A DNA stretch of 64,000 nt from Fistulifera solaris (lineage: Eukaryota). Position 1 is the stretch's first letter, and every line of letters starts with the position of its first letter. The notes under the pieces were generated by a model. The model was given only the letters and a program-made list of their open reading frames with translations, was not told where the DNA came from and did no database searches. Position numbers and translations under genes: made by a program. The stretch spans positions 868,001-932,000 of the forward strand of contig AP026133.1 of assembly GCA_030295235.1 (NCBI GenBank), in the 5' to 3' direction. Below are positions 1,557-14,161 of this stretch, in pieces.

Positions 1557-2749
1557 TGGCCGGTGATTCCACCTCGTCATTCATCGAGGACCTCGTTCAC
1601 TCACTCGCACATCACTTTATTGTGGAAAAGATCCGCCCTACGAAGGGATAGATACATGCTTGCAAGAAGATCCTTGGTGTGCAACCTGTCACAAGAGACC
1701 AGAAAGCGGTCTCTTGTGCTGCTCGCGTTGTCATACGGCTTGGTATTGTAATAGTAGTTGTCAGAAAGCTCACTACAAATCCGGACATCGCGAGATATGC
1801 TTGTCCGTTGCCAGAGATATAAAGAGCTTAGAAGAGGAGATTATTCCATTACTCAACACTCCCTTTGGCGACGACCCAGCACCACACAATATATTTGAAA
1901 CAGAAATCGGAATGTTTAGCGAGGGACCTGAAGCACATCGCTACATGGTGGCGCGCCGTGAGTTGGTCGAATCCTATTTTCAGGCAGCATTTGACGTCGA
2001 AATAAAAGAAGTCTGGGAAAAGGCACTCTATCACGCGTTAGTGCAATTGAGAGAGGCTGTTTCGGACCACGTGGAATGATATATGTGACCCCTTTCATTT
2101 TTTTTGGTATTTAAACCGGGACGACGACGCGTTTGACTTTGTTCAGTATTGGGTGAATCTGAAGTACGTCCGCGGTAGCGAAAGCATGATGGAGATAATG
2201 AACCGTCACGTCCAAAGCAAGGAGGGCGAATTTTTCTATCCGCGTAAGACCAACAGCCGTTTCCTCGACCTTTTCGATCAATGCCCCGATGCAGATGACC
2301 AAGATGTGTTCTTGGTCTTTCTTGTTACTATCCTCATCATCAAACTTCGTCTTGTGGCAGCCTATGATGCTACACTCCAGTCTTTAAATGTGGTGTTCGT
2401 TGAAACAACAGGTGGTCGATACATCCAAGAGGTTAGACTCGCCGTAACTGAAATGCTCCTTGATGAAAGCTTGGTTAACATTGATAGTCAGCGGCAACAA
2501 GTCGAGCGACTTGTCAACGTTATCGACCGAAACAACCCTTCCATGCTCCCAGCAATTCTCAACCCACTCCCGCTTCTGACTCAAAGTCGACCGCCACCCG
2601 ATATTCGAGGCGATCCATCCGAGGCGTTTGATATTGTCAATTACTGCAATCGATGTTTTAGTCGCATACCAGGAGCTTTAAAATTGCTCGAGGAGCGCTA
2701 TGGACCCAATCCAACCTATAACACAACAATGCGCTGCGAATACGATTAA
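1557..2749 (+). CDS. MYND zinc-finger protein (frameshifted in this assembly; start uncertain)
   Basis: CATCHK...CSRCHTAWYCNSSCQKAHYKSGHREIC is a MYND finger. ORFs 1660-2079 and 2153-2749 join through indels near 2070-2105 (poly-T), giving LNRDDDAFDFVQYW. Confidence 0.7.
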
Positions 2750-4017
2750 TGACATGGAGTTTTTGCAAATGGTTAGCAGTTATCGAAGATCTTCGTCACC
2801 CTAGATGTACAGAATTTGAAAGCAGCGAAGCCATTGCTGGACGGTGAAGGTCAAGCAGTAAGAAAGTGCCAGAAAAGGTCGTTTTGAGAGCGTTGCTCTC
2901 CCACGGCACAATGATCAGTGGCGAAATGGCAAATGTTGTATTCGATGTAGTACCAGGTCGTTGTAGCAATGAAAAGGCTTCTCCTCGAGTGATATGTTCC
3001 GCCTATAATGCTTGCATTCAAAATTCGAAATAGTTTCGACACTTATTTAAAAAGTGAGACCCAAACCCGCCCGACTCGTGTACCTGTTGCGGAAATCAGA
3101 GCCAAAGCGTAATTATTTTGACTACGGATTAGACACAACAACATTGGAACGTAGTTTTGACGCCTATGTTACATAAGCAAAACAAATGACGAGACAATTT
3201 CATTACCGTATTGTACCAGGTATCTTGCCGGTACTGCGCTGCACTCTTTTTTTCTTCTCCGACAAAGATCGACAACTGTGAAACAATGAAACGCGACCAA
3301 AGCAAACGACGCAATGCAAGCCATTGTGAAATGTTCATTACTTGATATTGCCGCTAAACGTGAACTAGATGGCAACAATGAACACTGATTCTAATGATGT
3401 AAAAAAAGATTTGGTCGATTGTATCAAAAAGCAAATGGCGGAAAGAGAGCCTTTTTCTACGAAGGGAAACAAGACCCACACTTGCAAGGTTCATGACTGA
3501 TATGATTCAGTCGTGGCGAAAGGTATTCTCTACAGACTGGGACCTACAGCCTACAATGCATTTGACAAACCGATTTGCGACAATTTTCGACATCAAACAT
3601 CAAGATGTTCCTTGCAATGACTGCCAAAGATAACTTCATCATGGTTAAACTAATTTGACAAACTAGCAGATCGAATGGACTAAAATAGAAATTGAATGCT
3701 CCGTAGCATGTTGGCTCGGAAAAGTAATGGCTATTGTCTCATGACTGAAATGCAGTCGCTGATCGTGTGGTAACCCTGACACTTTGGGCTACAGTGGAGG
3801 GACACCGAAAGATAACGATGATTTGCACCATAGCATCTACTTGTAGCTCACCACAAAAAAAAGCCATTGGCACATTTCAGACCCGTGCGTTCAAGACTAT
3901 TCATCTTATAACAAGTTTCTTGAGGGCCTTGAATAACCGTTGCCTGCTTGTGTTGCATCCTCATTTCTGAGAAGAATTTTCCGTCAAACGACAAAATATT
4001 TGGATAACAAAATCATC

Positions 4018-4923
4018 ATGCGCGTCCGTCTTGCTCTGGATTGGGCACCCAACGCCAATCACAGTGGTATTTATGCCGCGGTGAAGCACGGATGGTACAA
4101 TGAAGCAGGTGTAGACCTCGATATTCAACACCACGATTTTACAGAAAGTCCGGCGACCAAGTTGGAATTGGGCAAGGCGGACGTCGCGCTTTGCTCCTTG
4201 GATTGTTTGCTGAATTATCGTTCACGAGCGGAACCGCTTCCGGTCAAAGCCATTGCAGCAGTCTTGCAAGACGACTTGGCCAGTATCGCTGTACTCGAAA
4301 GCAGCGGAATCGAACGTCCGGCCCAGTTGGACGGCAAGACTCACGCATCGTATCGAGCATGCAACAAGGACGCCACCATTGAGTGCCTCGTCCGTAATGA
4401 CGGTGGAAAGGGCGATTTGAACTTTGCTTATCCCGATCAGGTCACCATCTGGAATACTCTTGTCAAGAACAAGGCTGATTCGATCTGGATTTTCATGAAT
4501 TGGCAGGGTGTACAAGCGGAATTGGCTGGCGTTGCTTTGCGCCATTTCAAAATGGCCGATTACGGTATCCCTTTTGGTTACTCTCCCATCATGATTGCCA
4601 ACGAAGACCTCAATACGGATCAATCTGCTGCTTTAAAGGCTTTTCTCGCCGCGACGGCCAAGGGCTATGCCTGGGCGGCCGCTCATCCGGTGGAAATGAC
4701 GGACATTCTTTTGGAGTGGGTCTCGGAAGACGATAAGAATAAGCCCTTTCTTCAGGCAGCACAAGCTGCGACGAGTCCTCATTATATTTCCACCATGACT
4801 GGCTCCTGGGGTCACATGGAATCGGAGAAAGTTAACGCTTATTTGAAATGGCGTGTGGAACTGGGTCTCGATTCGGAACCGTTCGCCGTCGACAAGCTCG
4901 TCACCAACGATCTCCTAAGATAA
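4018..4923 (+). CDS. NMT1/THI5-like (ThiY/SsuA-type substrate-binding fold) protein, paralog 1
   Basis: LALDWAPNANHSGIYAA, GWYNEAGVDL, SGIERPAQLDGK, ADSIWIFMNWQG, DYGIPFGYSP and FLAATAKGY motifs. Intronless; ATG at 4018. Confidence 0.88.
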   Translation: MRVRLALDWAPNANHSGIYAAVKHGWYNEAGVDLDIQHHDFTESPATKLELGKADVALCSLDCLLNYRSRAEPLPVKAIAAVLQDDLASIAVLESSGIERPAQLDGKTHASYRACNKDATIECLVRNDGGKGDLNFAYPDQVTIWNTLVKNKADSIWIFMNWQGVQAELAGVALRHFKMADYGIPFGYSPIMIANEDLNTDQSAALKAFLAATAKGYAWAAAHPVEMTDILLEWVSEDDKNKPFLQAAQAATSPHYISTMTGSWGHMESEKVNAYLKWRVELGLDSEPFAVDKLVTNDLLR

Positions 4924-4966
4924 TCGAGATGATTGTAAAGTGCTTCTCGTGACATGATAATATGAA

Positions 4967-5112
4967 ATTGTACTCTCGCTGCGGGAGCTTGATGTTTGGA
5001 AATAATATGCTGAGAGTTAAGCAAAAGTCCGCTCTTTTTGTATGGACTTTTGCATCGACCGTTCGAACCTGCTCATGGTAATGCATGCGAAAGGGAATGT
5101 GAGTTGTGCAAT
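4967..5112 (+). promoter_or_regulatory. TPP riboswitch-like aptamer in the 3'UTR of paralog 1
   Basis: GCGGGAGC...GCTGAGA, then P3a hairpin GCAAAAGTCC/GGACTTTTGC, then GACCGTTCGAACCTG..ATGGTAATGCAT GCG..AGGGAA. P1 is ATTGTACTCTCGC/GTGAGTTGTGCAAT. Follows a thiamine-related gene family. Confidence 0.88.
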
Positions 5113-5518
5113 GGAAGATTATCACTCAAGTGTTGCTGTGGAGAAGTAGATAAAAGAAACATAGTAGTGAATGATTGATCTAGCATTGAGCAAACAATAG
5201 TGACTAACTCCTTTGGAGACCCGGGTCTTTTGTTCGGCGTGCGACGCACACTCGTCATCGGCGGCGCGCGCGATCGTTTCATAAGATCTTTATGGATTTT
5301 CGTCCTCTTATTTTCGTTTAGAACCTATTTTACATTATTTGCTATTTGCTACTTGTACTGTTGTCATTTGGCCGGATCTTGTTGTATGACGCGGGTCTGC
5401 AACGTTCATAAATCATAAGGTTTGTTTTAAGTTTAAAAAAAGCCCCGACCGAACGATAGAAACAATCAACCCACATCGACGCGACAGACAAGAATTTCAT
5501 TTTGATTCGACAACCATC

Positions 5519-6424
5519 ATGGAACGTCTCCGCTTCACCCTCGACTACACCCCCAACGCGAATCACAGCGGTGTGTTTGCTGCTATCCATCACGGATGGT
5601 ATAAGGAAGCAGGTATTGATCTTGAGCTTCAACATCGTGACTTTCAGCACGGTGGTATCGCCAAGCTGGAGCTCGGGATCGCCGATGTGGCTTTCACGGC
5701 AATGCTCGTTCTAGGAAGCTATCGTAAACACGATTCGTTTCCGATCAAAGCCATTGCTACGGCGATGCAAAACGACTTGAGTACGATTGCTGTGCTCGCC
5801 AAGAGCGGCATCGAGCGTCCGGCTCAGCTCGATGGCCGATCCTACGCATCCTGCCAAGCGGGCTTCAAGAACCCCACGGTTGCCGCTCTTATCCGTAGTG
5901 ACGGTGGACAGGGTGATTTGACTTTCACCTATCCCGAAAAGATTAGTAGTTGGGAGGCGCTGGCGGAGAAAGAAGCCGATTCGGTCTGGATTTATCGTAA
6001 CTGGCAAGGCGTGCAAGCAGAGTTGGCTGGTGTTGATCTGCGTCACTTCACGTTGGGCGACTACGGTGCACCCTATTGCTACTCTCTCGTCATGGTTGCC
6101 AACACGGATTACATTGCCAAGAAAGCGTCGACGTTGCGTGCTTTTCTGGCGGCAACGGCCAAGGGTTATGCTTGGGCTGCGGAAAATCCGGTCAAGATGG
6201 CGGAAATTCTCTACGAGTGGGTCGCGGAAGCCGATAAGCATTTGACGTTTCTCAAGGCAGCGCAAGCTGCCACCAGTCCCCACTACATCTCTTCCAAGAC
6301 TGGGTCCTGGGGACACATGGAAGTAGAGAAAGTTAACGCTTATTTGAAATGGCGTGAGGCACAAGGTCTCGAAACGACTACCGTGGAGGCCGACGCGCTA
6401 GTTACCAATGAACTCCTTGGATAA
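5519..6424 (+). CDS. NMT1/THI5-like protein, paralog 2
   Basis: FTLDYTPNANHSGVFAA, SGIERPAQLDGR, ADSVWIYRNWQG; intact 301-aa ORF collinear with paralog 1. Confidence 0.88.
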   Translation: MERLRFTLDYTPNANHSGVFAAIHHGWYKEAGIDLELQHRDFQHGGIAKLELGIADVAFTAMLVLGSYRKHDSFPIKAIATAMQNDLSTIAVLAKSGIERPAQLDGRSYASCQAGFKNPTVAALIRSDGGQGDLTFTYPEKISSWEALAEKEADSVWIYRNWQGVQAELAGVDLRHFTLGDYGAPYCYSLVMVANTDYIAKKASTLRAFLAATAKGYAWAAENPVKMAEILYEWVAEADKHLTFLKAAQAATSPHYISSKTGSWGHMEVEKVNAYLKWREAQGLETTTVEADALVTNELLG

Positions 6425-6466
6425 AGAAGCGATAAGAAAATACTTCTCGTGACATGGTAATTTGAT

Positions 6467-6613
6467 ATTGCACTCTCGCTGCGGGAGCTTGATGTTTGGA
6501 AATAATATGCTGAGAGTTTCAAAGTCTATGGTACCGTACCTGAAAAGACTTTGTATCGACCGTTCGAACCTGCTCATGGTAATGCATGCGAAAGGGAATG
6601 TGAGTTGTGCAAT
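6467..6613 (+). promoter_or_regulatory. TPP riboswitch-like aptamer in the 3'UTR of paralog 2
   Basis: Same core motifs as copy 1 (GCTGAGA, GAACCTG, GTAATG, GCG, AGGGAA); P3a stem is CAAAGTCT/AGACTTTG. Confidence 0.88.
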
Positions 6614-7147
6614 GGAAGATTATCACTCAAGTGTTGCTGTGGAGAAGTAGATAAAAGAAACATAGTAGAGAAAGACACATGGTTTGAAAAAGAGATAGAG
6701 TCAATAGACGTTAAAATGGCTCCCTAGCTTGTCCCATTCGAAGGCGTGAAGCGTGAATGACACGACTCGTACGTCGTGCGTCAGTTATCTGTTGTCCCGG
6801 ATCGGATCTTTTTTTGGATCTTTCGCACTCGCGCGTGCATTCTGCAAAATACCTTCCAATAAATCTCTCGACCTTTCCTCATTTTTGTCGAACTCCTTTT
6901 CACGGCATTCAGTTTAAATCTTAATACACTATTCAGTCGCAAACAGATGAAAGCGTTGAACTGGCATCACCTTATCCGCCATCCACCCATTACGTCGAAA
7001 TGGTATCCGATCATCAAAGTTACGTATGAGTATGAGAAAGATCTTGGCGCGGGTCTGACGGAAATTGATGGTGGAGATAGGCGCGTCGGCTTCACTTAAT
7101 CCGAAATGTGGTGACGGTGTTGAATACCCACATTACCAACAACCAAC

Positions 7148-8055
7148 ATGGAACGCATTCGTCTCGCTCTAGACTGGAAACCCAACGTCAATCACAGTGG
7201 AATTCTCGCTGCGATTCACCATGGGTGGTACAAAGAAGCCGGCATTGAGCTCGAGCTCATCGATCGCGAGTTGACGCAGAGTGCCCCGCAAAGGTCGAGT
7301 CGGGCGTAGCAGATGTAGGGCTTACCTGCATTGTTACGTTAGCGAGCTACCGTGAGGAAAAGGATTCGCATCCTTTGAAAGCCATCGCGTCGCTCATGCA
7401 AGAAGATTTGAGTTCGATGGCGGTGCTCGAAAGTAGCGGCATCGAGCGTCCCGCGCAGCTCGATGGGAAGCGCTTCGCGGCTTGCTCTGTGGGAGGACGG
7501 AACCCCACGATCACTTGTCTCATTCAAAACGACGGAGGAAAGGGTGATATCACCTACATCCAGTCCGATCGTGTGAATTTGTATGAGACGGTGGCGGAGA
7601 ACAAAGCCGATGCTATTTGGCTCTTTAAGAACTGGCAGGGTGCTCAAGCAGAAGCGGCCGGTGTCAAGTTGCGTCACTTTACGCTGGGTGACTACGGCGT
7701 ACCTTATTGCTACCCGATTACCATGTTTACCAGCCCCGCGTTCATCGCCGAGCATTCCAAGACGTTGCGCACGTTTCTAGCGACAACGGCCAAGGGTTAT
7801 GCCTGGGCTGTTGTCAATCCAGAGAAGATGGTGGACATCCTCATGGAGCAGGTGCGTGACGAACACAAAGATAAGGCATTCTTGGAAATTGCCTTTGCTG
7901 CGACTCGTCCGTACTTTATTTCGTCAAAGACTGGTTCTTGGGGGCACATGGAGCCCGAGAAAGTCAACGCTTATTTGAAGTGGCGTGCGGAGCAAGGGCT
8001 ATCCAACGGGCCCCTCGAAGTCGACGAGTTCGTCACTAATGAACTCCTCGGATAA
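7148..8055 (+). CDS. NMT1/THI5-like protein, paralog 3 (one-base deletion in the C-run near 7285)
   Basis: ATG 7148 gives MERIRLALDWKPNVNHSG. Restoring one C in gccccgcaaag joins it to the frame of ORF 7375-8055. Confidence 0.85.
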
Positions 8056-8097
8056 AGAAGCTATAAGAAAATGCTTCTCGTGACATGGTAATTTGAT

Positions 8098-8239
8098 ATT
8101 GCACTCTCGCTGCGGGAGCTTGATGTTTGAAAATAATATGCTGAGAGTTTCAAAGTCTATGGTACCTGAAAAGACTTTGTATCGACCGTTCGAACCTGCT
8201 CATGGTAATGCATGCGAAAGGGAATGTGAGTTGTGCAAT
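8098..8239 (+). promoter_or_regulatory. TPP riboswitch-like aptamer in the 3'UTR of paralog 3
   Basis: Nearly identical to copy 2, with a shorter P3a loop. Confidence 0.88.
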
Positions 8240-8537
8240 GGAAGATTATCACTCAAGTGTTGCTGTGAGAAGTAAATAAAAGACATAGTAGTGAATGAGT
8301 TAAATGAATCTTGAGATTGCGCAGAGCAAACTGGATCTCATCAGCTTGGTTTTACAATCGGCCTCGTTCGTCTAGTTATGAAAAGCATGCGGTCAGTTAC
8401 GTCGTGTGGACGAAGTATCTAAAAGTGGTTATTATTTGTTAAAAAAACTCACTGCAGTAACATGATAGCCATATGTTGGCGAGAGACAGGGAAATATGTT
8501 TCAAAAAACAATCCGTCATAATAAAAGATAGATGAAC

Positions 8538-11013
8538 TTAATCGACAGTAACTGCCTTGGCAAGATTTCGTGGAGTATCCGGGTTGATTCCTCTGAAAGT
8601 GAAAAGTGTGAGTCGAACTACTTCTTTTCATGCTGGCAGCACAGCCACAAGAAACGTACCGTAACATGGCCAACTCGTACGAAATCAACTGTAGTGGAAG
8701 AACAGCACCCAACGCGGTCAACGGACCATTGTTGGGGATGATGATGGGATCGTCGTCTAAATCACGGGCCAATTCAGCTTTGTCAGTAATAATTATGACT
8801 TGAGCTCCGCGTGCTTTCACTTCTTCTGCCGCAGTACGCATGTGATGCGCGTGCTGATCGTCTAGAATCAACATGATAATAGGCGTAGCACCAAACTTTC
8901 CGTTGTTGTCATCTTCAATCAACGCAAATGGACCGTGCTTCAAAGCGCCGCCACTGTACCCTTCGGCATGCAAGTAGCACATTTCTTTAATCTTCAAAGC
9001 ACCTTCCATAGCCACCGGTTCTCCATACCCTTTGCCCAAAACAAAGCAATGCTCCTTCGTATTGAGTTTTTGAGCCACCTTTTCACATTGTTGACGCGTT
9101 TTCAATGCCATACCGAAGGTAATGGGCAATCGCATGAGTGCTTCCTTCAATTTGATGGCCTCAATACTAGGTGGATGACCTTCGATTTTGTCCCTCGTTT
9201 GACGGAACCACAGAGCAATCAATGCCAAGACGGTGACTTGTGTGGTGAAGGCCTTGGTACTGGCCACGGCATTCTCGCGTCCCGCATTGCAGTAGACACC
9301 TGCCTTAGTCGTTCGGGCAATCAAACTACCGACGGCATTGACGACACTGAGTACATTGATGCCACGGTCCATGGCCGTATTCACAACACGAGCAACATCT
9401 TTCGTTTCACCACTTTGGGACACCACAATGAGTCCGGTCGATTCTGGATTCGACGGACAAGGAAAATCCTTGGGTTCCGTTTCAGCCGCATCCAACGAAT
9501 ACACACTATCAAAACTACCCAATTGCTTCATGAGGCGTTCACCGTACTTGGATGCATTGAGACTGGTCCCACAAGCCGACAAGACCATGTGTTTGATTTG
9601 ACTGAATCGATCAAAGTTCCCGTCCAACCCACCGAGATTGATGTTGTCCGCCCCCAATCGTCCACCAAAGCCCATGGCCCGGGCAATGGCTTCGGGCTGT
9701 TCGTAACACTCCCGGAGTGTCCAGTGCGGATACGGCGCCGGACTGAGTTTGACATCTTGATCGGGTGCCTTTTGTTTGCGTTTCAAGTCCAGTGACCGTC
9801 CGTCGGCATGCAACACACCAATTTCTCCATCTTTCATGGAAATGAAATTCTTGGTGTACCGATTGAACGCCGACGTTTCACTGGCGATGAAACAACGATC
9901 ATCTCCGATTCCAATCACGAGAGGGGAACCATTGCAGGCGACGACCAGTTCATCGGGCGAATCGACACACATGATCCCCAATCCCCAGGTGCCGTCACAC
10001 TTTTGCAGGGCCTGTTCGGTGGCATCACGGAGTGTCATGCCCGGATTGTTCGCGTAGACGTGTCCAATCAACTTGGCAATGACTTCCGTGTCAGTTTGTC
10101 CTTCAAATTGGTGTCCGAGTGCTTGCAACTCTCGTCGTAATTCGTTGGAGTTGTTGAGCGTTCCGTTGTGGACTAAGGCAATCTTCCCTGACGAATCGGT
10201 ATGAGGATGGGCATTTTCATCGGTTTTTCCACCATGTGTCGCCCAACGCGTATGCGCAATGCCTACCGAGTGTCCTACCGATGCTTGCGAATGATCACGG
10301 ACCATTTCAATGGAGTCGGCTTTTTCTCCGACACTGGCAAATTTGGTGATGGCCTAGAGAAGAAAAGAGAGAGAGAGAGGAGGGGGAGGGAAATAAGAGC
10401 GATAGTATGAGAGATTAAGAGCTAACATTTGCAAATGTCAATGTCTTTGTAATCATAAAAGTAACGCACCAATTTTCCTCCATGATTGTCCATGGTCGCA
10501 ATTCCAGCACTGTCATAACCACGATTCTTCAAAATGGTCAATCCATCGACCAAAAAAGTCACTGTGGGAATGATGATCCGAAAGCAGATAGATAAATACT
10601 CGACGTGAGAAATCGACAGAAGAAACAGAATGAATCAATCAATCAATCAATGAAACAAAAGAACATGTTTTCGTATCCGACTCTTTCCCGTTGTGTTGTT
10701 TCTTACGGTTTTTCGTTCATTATTTCATTATTCGCTGATATTCATTCGTTCAGACGTACCGTGCTTCGACGCCTTTCAAGGCCACAATTCCAGCAATCCC
10801 ACAACACTCGGCTTTTTGTTGTTCTTGTTGTTGCCATACCGCCATGGCAGTGACCGCCGCGGCCGCCACTATCCAGGAACGATCGTTCTTTTGGTGGGTC
10901 GACGACGACGACGACGACGACGACAAGGTCGAGAAAGCCGCGAATGTCGTCGGACGTCTCGTTATCGACATCGACTGGACGATTAGTTTTCGAGATGTCA
11001 ACCACAATGTCAT
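8538..11013 (-). CDS. GFA1: Glutamine:fructose-6-phosphate aminotransferase (GFAT), 4 exons, with an N-terminal presequence
   Basis: Exons 11013-10760, 10561-10470, 10353-8660 and 8592-8538 with GT-AG introns. Motifs [49 protein letters not shown], and C-terminal [11 protein letters not shown]. Confidence 0.95.
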
Positions 11014-11648: not shown

Positions 11649-14161
11649 ATGAATCATCATCATAATATCACCAACTCTTTCTCGCCGTCACAAATTTGTG
11701 CTTCACTGACGATTCAAGAGGCACACTGGCCCGAATCATGTCCTCCAGAAGAAGGATTTCTTTCTGTTATTACTGGGAATACACATTGTAAATTTGCCTA
11801 TCATGATGGAAGTGATTATCGTCCTCGGTCCTTTTGGAGGTACGTGTTGGAGTGGTGTTCGAAGAAAAGAAAGAAAAGAAATGGAAAGGCACATTACTCA
11901 TCAACATCCTTCTCTTTATTCTTTCTTCTTTTTTTCTTTTTTTCTTATTTAGTATTCCCGTTGCACCGTTGTCACACAACAATCACACGACACAAAATAA
12001 CCGAGACAGTTTTCTGGAATCCATTCCCCATCAATGTACTGCGGCACAAGCCTTGTGGAAATCACCCAATGATACAATCATCAAGCCACTCACACGCGCG
12101 GCCATCTATTATTATCGCGTCACCACGAAACGAATTCCGACCGTCACAATCTATCTCATTTCGACCAATCCTGTTCATGAAAGCATATTAGGACAATGGT
12201 TGCAAGGATTGCCTGTACGATGCATTCGATTGCGTCCGAAGGATGTTGTGTCAATGTCCTTGCCGTATCCGACAATGGGGATGGATCGATTTGTCGCGGT
12301 ACAAGCCATTTCGAAATATCCCGCACTCATTGTAGATGGAGGAACGGCTTTGACGACGACTGTATTGAATGAAAATGGACACATGGTCGGTGGAACGATT
12401 GCACCGGGTTGTATGCGCAATGTCGGGCATTGCATATGGGAAATTTGCCGCTCTTGACACCGGACGAAATACAGCAATTCATGGAACGTAACGAACCTTT
12501 ACCATTGTGGGCGAACAATACTCACGACGCCATGTGGAATGGAGTAATGAGGAGTACGGCTTTGTTCATACGCGCGGTGGTGCGGGAATTTTTGCAGCAG
12601 TATCACGTGCCGGCTAAGAATGGTTCAACAATCGTACATGTGATTGTGACAGGATCGGATGGACCGTTCCTGATGAAATTCTTAAAATCCGAATCATGTC
12701 ACCGATTGTTGGCCCAGATGCCCCGCGATAGTGACTTTGAGTGTGATGACACCACCGTGATGGAATACAATCCACATTTGCTGCATTTTGGCATAACACA
12801 GATTCTGTTGCAGCATCGAGAGAGTAATGATGTCGATGAGTCGTTTCACTCGGAATGGATTGGATTGCGGGTCGCACGGAATGTTGGGCGTGGATATGTG
12901 GATCGGGTCGAACAAACGGAGAATTTGGCACAAGCTTTGTTTCATGTCGTCTATGATCATGGTTGTAGCGAAGTTTTGGGGGTACTGGCATTCTATGGTA
13001 TGTGTCTGTTGCATATTTTGTCGAACTGTATAACTGTTTCTGACAAAAAGGCACTTTCGGGAATCAGATGCTTTGATTCGATACAGTCTAAACGGAGAGA
13101 GTATTGCGACAGTCAACATGACGGAGAGTTCCGCTGTCGAACGAAAACAAAAGGAAGCAGAACGAGCCGCCGCTTTGCTGGTGGAACGGTGTGCCGTCGT
13201 CAAAGAACACAAGGAAAGTACTATTGGTGCCCCGCCTGTGTTTAGTCCAGAGAAAGCGCTGCAAGGGAATGCGTTGTTGCCACATTACATTATACCAAAC
13301 GGGCCAACGCCAGTATTTAGTCCAGGACGAGCCAGGGCGCCACCGAGTCGGAAACGTGGTCGACCTCGAAAGAATTCTCTGTCCCCGCAGCCGATTTTGA
13401 ACGGAGCGATTGCAACAGAAACGAGCAGAAACGTTTCATCACCGCAACTGAGTAGTATCTCATCCAAACGCGGCCGACCTCGCAAGAATCCATTGTCCGC
13501 GACGCTAGTTCCGAATGAGGCGATTGTTGCTAAAACAGGAATGAATGTTTCGGTATCGCAACAGAGTAGCACGCCACGTAAACGTGGTCGACCTCGAACG
13601 AATCCTCTGTCCCTGCAACCGGTTTTGAGTCCAGGTCAAGCGACTAAACGAGGTCGACCTCGAAAGAGTTCTTTGTCCCTGCAACCGGTATCTAATCAGA
13701 ATGAAGCAACTGTAACAGAAAAGGACCTCAATACACTAGCGCTGCCGCAGAGTTCGTCACGCAAACGAGGTCGACCGCGCAAAGATTCTATGCCTACGAG
13801 TCCAGATCGAGCTCCTAGAATGGATCCGAATGACGAGGCAACGGCGTCGCAGCAGAAGCAGAGTACGCCACACAAAGTTGGTCGTCCTCGAAAAAATCCT
13901 ATGAGTTCAAACAAACAAGATCGAAGGCGAAAAGAGTTTCGAAATACTCTGCCTGACGGTGTCCTACCAACGGATTATGTACACCGCCGCGTCGCTAAAT
14001 TCTTTGGGGATGGAAAGACCCCGTTTTACGGAAAAGTTGAGTCTTACGATCCCGAGAGTCAATATTGGAAAATATTGTACGACGATGGAGATGAAGAAGA
14101 AATGGAGTTCTATGAACTAGTTGTTCAATTGAAATGCTATGAAGAGAATAATAATGAGTAG
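11649..14161 (+). CDS. Type III pantothenate kinase (CoaX-like) domain fused to Tudor-like domains and six AT-hooks
   Basis: ITGNTH, MGMDR, IVDGGTALT, GGTIAPG, NTHDAM..GV and VIVTGSDG motifs. Introns 11840-11952 and 12998-13067 join the frames; one-base deletion in the G-run near 12407. Six GRPR[K/T] repeats. C-terminal VAKFFG..FYGKVESYD...WKILYDDGDEEEM. Confidence 0.8.

Follow-up and report, generated by a model that had tools for sequence, protein, structure and literature searches.

Contig AP026133.1 of the diatom Fistulifera solaris, which is described as allodiploid, carries three tandem intron-less genes of the NMT1/THI5-like family (PF09084) within the 64,000-nucleotide (nt) stretch analyzed here (assembly GCA_030295235.1, positions 868,001–932,000; hereafter, the window). 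Each gene is followed in its 3′ untranslated region (3′UTR) by a cassette of ≈220 nt that matches the thiamine pyrophosphate (TPP) class of aptamers. Comparison of this array with its counterpart in the second subgenome has shown that both selection and gene conversion act on the cassette. Very probably, a bacterial-type NMT1 gene was duplicated, one copy gained the cassette, probably from the 3′UTR of a native FOLR gene, and was triplicated, and the proteins then diverged in their cleft under purifying selection. The aptamer elements themselves are already catalogued in Tables S1b and S1c of Llavero-Pasquina et al. 2022 (PMC9544697), which also notes the missing signal peptide and the likely horizontal origin of these genes. 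New here are the UTR-limited gene conversion, the kinship with the FOLR cassettes, the position of the poly(A) site, the rebuilt protein cleft and the context of an auxotroph.

The array and its 3′UTR cassettes

The genes were located by open reading frame (ORF) calls and a Pfam search, and were identified by database names and Table S1b of PMC9544697, in which rows 28 and 27 equal aptamers a and b, respectively:

4018–4923, + strand: NMT1-domain gene a (FisN_2Lh419), 301 amino acids, intron-less, without signal peptide; PF09084, E = 7.7e-47
5519–6424, + strand: NMT1-domain gene b (FisN_2Lh420), 301 amino acids; PF09084, E = 9.7e-48
7148–8055, + strand: NMT1-domain gene c (FisN_2Lh421; public record P0053, 302 amino acids), frame broken at 7289/7290

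The original prediction described three tandem genes with diverged proteins, and this was borne out: pairwise protein identity is 55–59%, DNA identity is 63–68%, and synonymous sites are near saturation (synonymous distance, dS, 1.3–2.4). The ratio of nonsynonymous to synonymous distance (dN/dS) against the homoeologue is 0.067 for gene a, 0.064 for gene b and 0.054 for gene c. In copy c, one base is absent at 7289/7290, leaving it without an open frame in the window. We considered the possibility that it is a pseudogene and rejected it, given its dN/dS and the fact that both halves match the intact public protein P0053 letter for letter. Since, in addition, the spacing between aptamers b and c is 1626 in the window and 1627 in the older assembly, an assembly error is the likeliest cause of the frameshift. 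In each of the runs X1, X2 and X5, a single contig over 7289/7290, possibly from the homoeologue, has one extra base.

The cassettes that follow the stop codons are 90–98.6% identical (203/221, 197/218 and 215/218), and the RNA element is thus better conserved than the genes, as predicted. They had been called almost identical. This holds for b and c, which agree at 215 of 218 positions, but cassette a differs from both at 18–21 sites, the majority of them in P3a and its loop. The covariance model RF00059 matched all three over its full length (41.1–43.4 bits, E from 9e-6 to 2.4e-6). The features of the cassettes and their 3′ flanks are:

4942–5147, + strand: cassette a, an interrupted P1 rod (≈32 pairs) topped by a TPP-class aptamer; z = −2.84, 0 of 100 shuffles as stable
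4971–5114, + strand: TPP aptamer match a; RF00059, 41.1 bits, E = 9e-6; CUGAGA at 5010–5015, P3a at 5021–5053, P2/P4/P5 core at 5057–5097
5160–5167, + strand: CATAGTAG motif of copy a, 3′ of the rod; probable 3′-end element with a putative role
6442–6648, + strand: cassette b, P1 rod and aptamer; z = −2.44, 1 of 100 shuffles
6471–6615, + strand: TPP aptamer match b; RF00059, 42.3 bits, E = 4.5e-6
6661–6668, + strand: CATAGTAG motif of copy b, 18–30 nt ahead of the poly(A) site
6686–6691, + strand: probable poly(A) site of gene b, past the whole cassette; 5 A in the DNA, internal priming possible
8073–8273, + strand: cassette c, P1 rod and aptamer; z = −2.49, 2 of 100 shuffles
8102–8241, + strand: TPP aptamer match c; RF00059, 43.4 bits, E = 2.4e-6
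8284–8291, + strand: CATAGTAG motif of copy c

The conserved block behind copy c extends to ≈8291, beyond the end at 8275 originally assigned to the region. The P3a stem is GCAAAAGTCC/GGACTTTTGC at 5021–5030/5044–5053 in copy a, and CAAAGTCT/AGACTTTG in copies b and c, at 6520–6527/6546–6553 and 8151–8158/8172–8179. Its loop is closed by a C-G pair in copy a and by U-A in copies b and c, which confirms the compensatory change first noticed there.

At least 12 cassettes are present in the genome, behind six NMT1 genes in two arrays and all six FOLR (PF03024) genes on contigs C25 and C26; the number is a lower bound because only 49 of 1427 candidates were scored in the RNA search. The UGAGA of J3/2, the P2 helix, G60, G76-C77-G78, P4/P5 and the UAAU of L5 are invariant in all 12; the roles of these ligand-contact motifs in TPP aptamers have been described (PMC3764141). 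Over the 36 pairs of the rod and P2, 94.4% of 430 cells are paired and 21 are changed on both sides, and neither value was reached in any of 500 shuffles; slid registers gave 31–57%. The same long arms are written out as P1 in Table S1c of PMC9544697. Folds of the 12 cassettes trimmed to the rod ends, a trim chosen after the structure was seen, gave z scores from −1.06 to −3.92, with 7a–7c and F25b weak. Whole-UTR folds with loose flanks were no better than shuffles (z = −0.92 and −0.33).

Some of these data count against a working TPP-responsive cassette. None of the three window aptamers reaches the RF00059 gathering score of 54.3, and a default Rfam scan at that score therefore returned no match in the window; insertions in P3/P3a are the likely reason for the lower covariance score. 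The position matching A61 of thiM, in J4/5, is C in all six NMT1 and in two FOLR cassettes. In thiM, A61 coordinates Mg and bonds to C77; among the variants tested, which do not include A61C, A61U reduces TPP affinity to 2200 nM and A61G is harmless to switching (bioRxiv 2025.01.21.634073). The pairs with both sides changed number eight, a value matched by 77 of 500 shuffles, and the covariation counts are inflated because the 12 cassettes are related rather than independent.

Transcript cover comes from contigs of four of five listed runs, all from one study and only guessed to be RNA, which weakens the case for a transcribed element. Contig X3 record 21 spans 6141–6602 with no other letters and links gene b to its own aptamer; record 22 lies on 6573–6691, again with no other letters, and continues into 16 A. 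For the homoeologous c copy, two runs contain contigs whose poly(A) begins just past the cassette, at a similar word, where the DNA has 3 A. Poly(A) ends past the aptamer are thus seen in contigs for two of the six copies, b in the window and c in the homoeologue, contrary to the concern that poly(A) sites might always lie upstream. Read most simply, these contigs place the whole cassette in the mature mRNA. No splice-type joints were found in the array UTRs among those listed from the contigs.

The CATAGTAG motif is kept in 11 of the 12 genome cassettes, and ACATAGTAGTGAA has 10 genome matches, seven of them at cassettes (control, 3). We considered CATAGTAG as a standard diatom poly(A) signal and rejected it, as it does not match the published triplet UAA (PMC6413133). 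A loose contig end in X5, which hinted at an alternative post-stop sequence common to two copies, was also dropped, since the contig may fit two places; X5 is a wetland metagenome (share 0.09) whose contigs are mostly 90–95% alike, over 27 of 30 bins.

Selection and gene conversion in the two subgenomes

The second array, on contig C7, is the homoeologue of the first. Compared by position, the coding sequences are 92% identical (dS 0.33–0.38, dN/dS 0.05–0.07), synonymous sites differ at 27–30%, and the spacers are 59–78% identical (22–41% differ). Of 262 informative sites in the coding regions, 234 group the copies by position, and no site groups them by chromosome. The cassette has 26 informative sites, of which only one groups by position, while eight join C7 a with C7 c and six split by chromosome. 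The within-chromosome pairs 8b/8c and 7a/7c are each identical at 215 of 218 positions, whereas the homoeologous pairs 8c/7c and 8a/7a are identical at 190/217 and 194/218 (Fisher p = 2e-6 and 3e-5). An approximately unbiased (AU) test rejected the joining of the two c cassettes (p = 1.7e-7). The cassettes thus follow the pattern of concerted evolution, in which paralogues within one genome are closer than orthologues over a bounded tract. Here, the tract extends from near the stop codon up to the CATAGTAG motif, and the coding regions are without such mixing. Judged from these comparisons, gene conversion has reset the UTRs after the parental genomes split. The case is not uniform across the array, however: joining the homoeologues of a, or those of b, was not rejected by the AU test (p = 0.09 and 0.11), so that conversion is proven for c, while array-wide conversion is suggested only by the six sites that split by subgenome.

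Selection is apparent from the distribution of the changes. Among the six NMT1 cassettes, none of 74 core columns varies, compared to 17 of 20 columns in the P3a loop. For the single-copy FOLR-x cassette, which stands alone rather than in tandem, 2 of 217 sites distinguish the two subgenomes, a share far below the divergence of synonymous sites given above, although exchange between homoeologues is possible there. The suggestion that selection or gene conversion acts on the RNA is upheld for both. Conversion is likely confined to the cassette because the selected core alone is similar enough to seed exchange, as expected from the identity dependence of homologous recombination. The core would stay unchanged, and would thereby remain the only stretch of the repeat unit similar enough for continued exchange, through which conversion would reset the UTRs. 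Conversion templated by cDNA, with its end likewise expected near the poly(A) site, is indistinguishable here from a DNA route.

We considered the possibility that the near-identical UTRs are an assembly artefact, caused by the merging of reads from repeats, or reflect selection alone without conversion. Copy c does contain a probable one-base assembly error, and the single-copy cassette stays 99% identical without a tandem partner. However, the current and the older assembly give the same six UTR sequences, and the contigs that link gene b to its own UTR do so without a differing letter. Selection alone is insufficient, because the free P3a loop is shared as well: it cannot pair c with b on one chromosome and with a on the other. 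We therefore regard this explanation as highly improbable and retain selection together with conversion. The terms “gene conversion” and “concerted” do not occur in the main text of PMC9544697, and a literature search, which had most subscription journals outside its reach, found no report of UTR conversion.

These results carry a caution: near-identical paralogous regulatory RNAs overstate selection, as converted copies are not independent evidence. The array had been put forward as a natural test of what diatom aptamers do. Because conversion makes the copies non-independent, the paralogues are a weaker test than was thought; a host apparently without thiamine synthesis is a better reason to study them.

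Kinship of the cassettes and the thiamine supply of the host

The six FOLR cassettes (loci L022–L027) lie at C25:819770–819902, C26:726057–726188, C25:876631–876758, C25:882866–882994, C26:782463–782591 and C26:787038–787164. Two of the 12 genome cassettes, both FOLR, pass the Rfam cut-off. The NMT1 and FOLR cassettes are homologous over their full length, with 61–79% identity (77–79% to FOLR-x), and have the same rod with compensatory changes and the same 3′ motif. They differ in that the FOLR cassettes follow an unrelated coding sequence on other chromosomes, and in that four of the six have GAA in J4/5. GCU in J4/5 is fixed in eight of the 12 cassettes, namely all NMT1 and FOLR-x, while other diatoms have GAU or GAA in the part of Table S1c of PMC9544697 used here. 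The tandem FOLR pairs display patches of 90–99% identity in the 5′ part of the coding sequence together with mosaic cassettes, a hint of conversion. From L025:3024 onward (C25 near 882000), one FOLR copy, when read straight, runs into a stop codon ≈25 codons past its start, which may reflect a broken gene, an intron or an assembly error; its cassette is the most diverged.

In an unrooted protein tree of 38 sequences, which left out 13 of 51 hits and the C27/C50 paralogues and in which long branches touch only distant rows, the array copies group together (100/99), with the ancestral-type paralogue (FisN_6Hh163, C19/C20) next to them. Together, these nest among other relatives and Bacteroidota proteins (support 100/99). 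The signal-less Bacteroidota NMT1-domain proteins (L048–L052) match the ancestral-type paralogue along its entire length at 44–52% identity and, unlike the array proteins, retain the acidic cleft residues. There was no TPP match at the ancestral-type paralogue or in any of the five Bacteroidota NMT1 loci, some of which have short flanks. On the simplest reading, with the direction of transfer taken from these sequence comparisons, the cassette was gained from a FOLR UTR. The tree is unrooted, however, and algal NMT1-like genes elsewhere carry 3′ aptamers too (PMC4260697); for that reason the C19/C20 paralogue may instead have lost its aptamer, which tells against such a gain.

Both ancestral-type copies, at L028:4146–5069 (C19) and L029:4308–5312 (C20), look frameshifted, while the public protein P0009 is whole; these are probably further one-base assembly errors. 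A distant NMT1-domain gene, 31–38% identical, is split or broken at L030 (C27:8214–9090) and L031 (C50:26143–26289). The genome-wide RNA search, which included no scan aimed at that locus, found no aptamer there. In Polaribacter (L052:4001–4909), the NMT1 relative lies between hisA and hisF, inside what appears from the translations to be a histidine operon; fungal THI5 uses a histidine. In Maribacter (L048:57–2614), it directly follows a TonB-dependent-receptor-like gene (cut by the contig start; no NCBIfam match). A metagenome scan yielded no loci with an aptamer-core pattern and one distant locus (28%) with the array protein. The main text of a preprint on horizontal gene transfer contains no thiamine or THI5 passage.

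Gene searches indicate that F. solaris is probably a thiamine auxotroph. No match to ThiC or ThiE was found in its genome (controls were positive in 13 and 11 of 14 genomes, respectively). Two of four ThiD-family matches were checked, one per homoeologue pair, and are a pyridoxal kinase and a ribokinase; the sole ThiG-family match is PdxS. Table S3 of PMC9544697 lists TPK1, TENA and FOLR for F. solaris, with no THIC or SSSP hit; the genome has eight SSF matches, and the absence of SSSP therefore rests on that table. The Fistulifera plastid has lost thiG and thiS (PMC3971590). The probable auxotrophy follows from these absences and reassignments combined. Against it, the TENA salvage gene fits poorly with the missing ThiD and ThiE, and the absence of synthesis genes rests on searches, not growth. 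No growth test of thiamine need was found in the literature; one F. solaris culture medium contains thiamine (PMC5408240).

Function of the cassette and comparison with known systems

In the proposed mechanism, a long interrupted helix would open ≈15 nt past the stop codon, bear the TPP-class aptamer on top and close again, to be followed by the short motif and then the poly(A) site. In a host unable to build thiamine, the cassette would bind TPP or thiamine, and the ligand-bound form would lower the output of the vitamin B1 capture or binding genes when the vitamin is plentiful, through mRNA stability or translation rather than splicing. We tentatively put a working B1-responsive off-switch on uptake genes at only slightly short of an even prospect. 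All 12 aptamers found sit behind NMT1 or FOLR genes, which links them to thiamine, and in Micromonas, riboswitch-bearing genes rise 10- to >100-fold without thiamine (PMC4260697).

Several observations argue against such a switch. RNAalifold favored a 3′ hairpin between the 3′ arm of the rod and the CATAGTAG motif, as an alternative to the outer rod. For all six NMT1 copies, however, this hairpin comes out 2–7 kcal/mol less stable, with a pair probability of 0.00–0.04, and we rejected it as a demonstrated switch because single-sequence ensembles favor the outer rod. In ligand-free ensembles, the pair probabilities of the rod are mostly 0.65–1.0 in five of the six copies. With a rod that forms without ligand and a weaker alternative hairpin, there is no evident expression platform. 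In Phaeodactylum and Thalassiosira, aptamer-bearing genes were unresponsive to thiamine or hydroxymethylpyrimidine (HMP), and reporters with the PtTHIC aptamer were likewise negative (PMC9544697); the original prediction had stated this correctly for Phaeodactylum. These negative results come from species that make their own thiamine.

The unresponsive genes in the two diatoms, the rod predicted without ligand and the change at the A61 equivalent would also be expected if the cassette no longer switched. Its fixed structure might then set mRNA stability or 3′-end formation, as a long helix that places the stop codon beside the 3′ end or as a protein-binding platform, and the thiamine response would reside at the promoter. 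Consistent with this idea, conservation of the rod flanks and of the CATAGTAG motif equals that of much of the aptamer, and the NMT1 and FOLR-a genes have upstream words in common. A scaffold, however, would not need the ligand-contact motifs that are invariant in all 12 cassettes. Nor would it account for a cassette found only behind thiamine-linked genes and apparently gained by a new one. A non-switching structure is thus possible and deserves attention, but is not what we expect.

The regions upstream of the array genes had been called unrelated. They indeed do not align (mostly 17–50% in 60-column windows), yet share short words, among them:

3878–3885, − strand: CGGGTCTG before gene a, possible promoter element
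5392–5399, + strand: CGGGTCTG before gene b, possible promoter element
7050–7057, + strand: CGGGTCTG before gene c, possible promoter element

These are the only three matches to CGGGTCTG in the window, one ahead of each array gene, and they are kept in the three homoeologues; the word was picked post hoc, and the number of matches, three in 64 kb, does not exceed chance (17 of 100 shuffles). The shared words, CGGGTCTG and a paired GATCTT (window positions 5272 and 6805 were also noted), precede the NMT1 genes and FOLR-a and are kept in the homoeologues. The paired GATCTT was rejected as a thiamine-specific promoter element: with 90 genome matches against 25 in the control, only five of them before aptamer genes, it is a general word, common genome-wide.

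The neighbors of the array are a short ORF that has no Pfam match and a glutamine-fructose-6-phosphate amidotransferase-like gene. The latter (8449–10305, − strand; GATase and SIS domains) is convergent with the array, and the synteny is kept on C7. Upstream, a broken-looking ORF region at 1912–2749 (+ strand), with no Pfam match, has a shorter counterpart on C7. Further downstream, a gene at 13118–14161 (+ strand) encodes the AT-hook-like sequence KRGRPRK about seven times over; at the DNA level, this shows as a repeat family of six copies.

The proteins encoded by the array have undergone distinct changes relative to the ancestral type. Among 17 ancestral-type proteins, 77 columns are conserved in 16 or more; at 44 of these columns, one or more of the 12 array-type proteins depart from the ancestral residue. 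Glutamates 121 and 167, invariant in the 17 ancestral-type proteins, are replaced by K/R and Q, respectively, in all 12 array-type proteins, one loop is shortened, and the paralogues differ again around residues 63–66 and 113–122. In the alignment, the two glutamates fall on acidic residues of 4NMY, a thiamin-bound binding protein, and of ThiY (3IX1), and presumably line the ligand pocket.

These changes could fit a second alternative, in which the aptamer binds with a shifted specificity or threshold (thiamine, thiamine monophosphate or only high TPP), the clefts were rebuilt for different forms of B1, and the RNA and the cytosolic proteins together store or buffer scavenged vitamin. The fixation of GCU in J4/5 points the same way, as does the divergence between paralogues at a dN/dS of 0.05–0.07. 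However, the GCU base is also present in the FOLR-x cassettes, which argues against co-evolution with the array proteins; a single RNA sequence serves three different proteins; and the changed residues are placed in the pocket by the alignment to 4NMY and 3IX1. We consider a storage or buffering role improbable. The most elaborate form of the off-switch reading, in which an auxotroph grafted a FOLR TPP cassette onto a bacterial gene, UTR-limited conversion keeps that cassette uniform over three neofunctionalised paralogues, and a splicing-free riboswitch with a pocket retuned (A61 to C) for thiamine or high TPP controls scavenging by cytosolic proteins with rebuilt clefts, is unlikely to be right in all its parts.

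The off-switch reading bears on a puzzle left by PMC9544697, the strong conservation of TPP aptamers without regulation in two thiamine-making diatoms. F. solaris would be a sharper test, considering its apparent thiamine dependence, the placement of all its 12 aptamers on candidate capture genes, and the subgenomes by which selection can be gauged. If true, the cassette would be a eukaryotic riboswitch in intron-less 3′UTRs acting by an undescribed route, and vitamin B1 would be a requirement of this biofuel strain.

The array genes had been described as THI5/ThiY-like. This stands for the fold, but the defining residues of both classes are missing. Their best sequence and fold matches are the thiamin-binding proteins of ATP-binding cassette (ABC) transporters: the model of gene a (predicted local distance difference test score 94) has the class II binding-protein fold, with a template modeling (TM) score of 0.92 to 4NMY and 0.88 to ThiY 3IX1, the closest structures. 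However, the NMT1 domain begins at residue 2–3, leaving no room for a signal peptide, like in the Bacteroidota relatives, and no permease or ATPase gene adjoins the array. The acidic residue at the position of ThiY NHE and 4NMY GWD, a glutamate that we take to bind the aminopyrimidine, is Q in all 12 array-type proteins and E in all 17 ancestral-type proteins. Of the features of a ThiY-type ABC binding protein, only the fold is thus present. The fungal HMP phosphate (HMP-P) synthase THI5/NMT1 (4H65, 4ESW) belongs to the same Pfam family, is likewise cytosolic and has a similar fold (TM 0.74–0.80). In copies a, b and c, K62 is C/T/T and H66 is C/V/T, and the cysteine cluster GCCCFC is absent, the aligned stretch being GIPFGY, GAPYCY and GVPYCY. 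In THI5, we take Lys62 to bind pyridoxal phosphate, His66 (named in the title of 4ESW) to bind the substrate and the cluster to bind iron. An HMP-P synthase was rejected for lack of these residues, and with it a THI5 enzyme replacing THIC, for which HMP would moreover be useless without ThiD and ThiE.

The “THI5-like” aptamers listed for F. solaris in PMC9544697 (FisN_2Lh419/420/421 and FisN_2Hh419/420/421) are from the same genes and have the same sequences, with the P1 arms written out. The parts of that paper drawn on here do not mention auxotrophy of F. solaris, kinship with FOLR, the poly(A) position, the cleft changes or a tested F. solaris aptamer. Compared to the aptamers represented by RF00059, such as E. 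coli thiM and plant THIC, the F. solaris cassettes match over the full length and keep UGAGA, G60, G76-C77-G78, the UAAU of L5 and P2/P4/P5, but they score below the threshold, have C at A61 and an extra P3a stem, and extend P1 to ≈32 pairs. In plants and green algae, P2 contains a splice-acceptor AG, whereas P2 of the F. solaris cassette is GCGG, without that AG.

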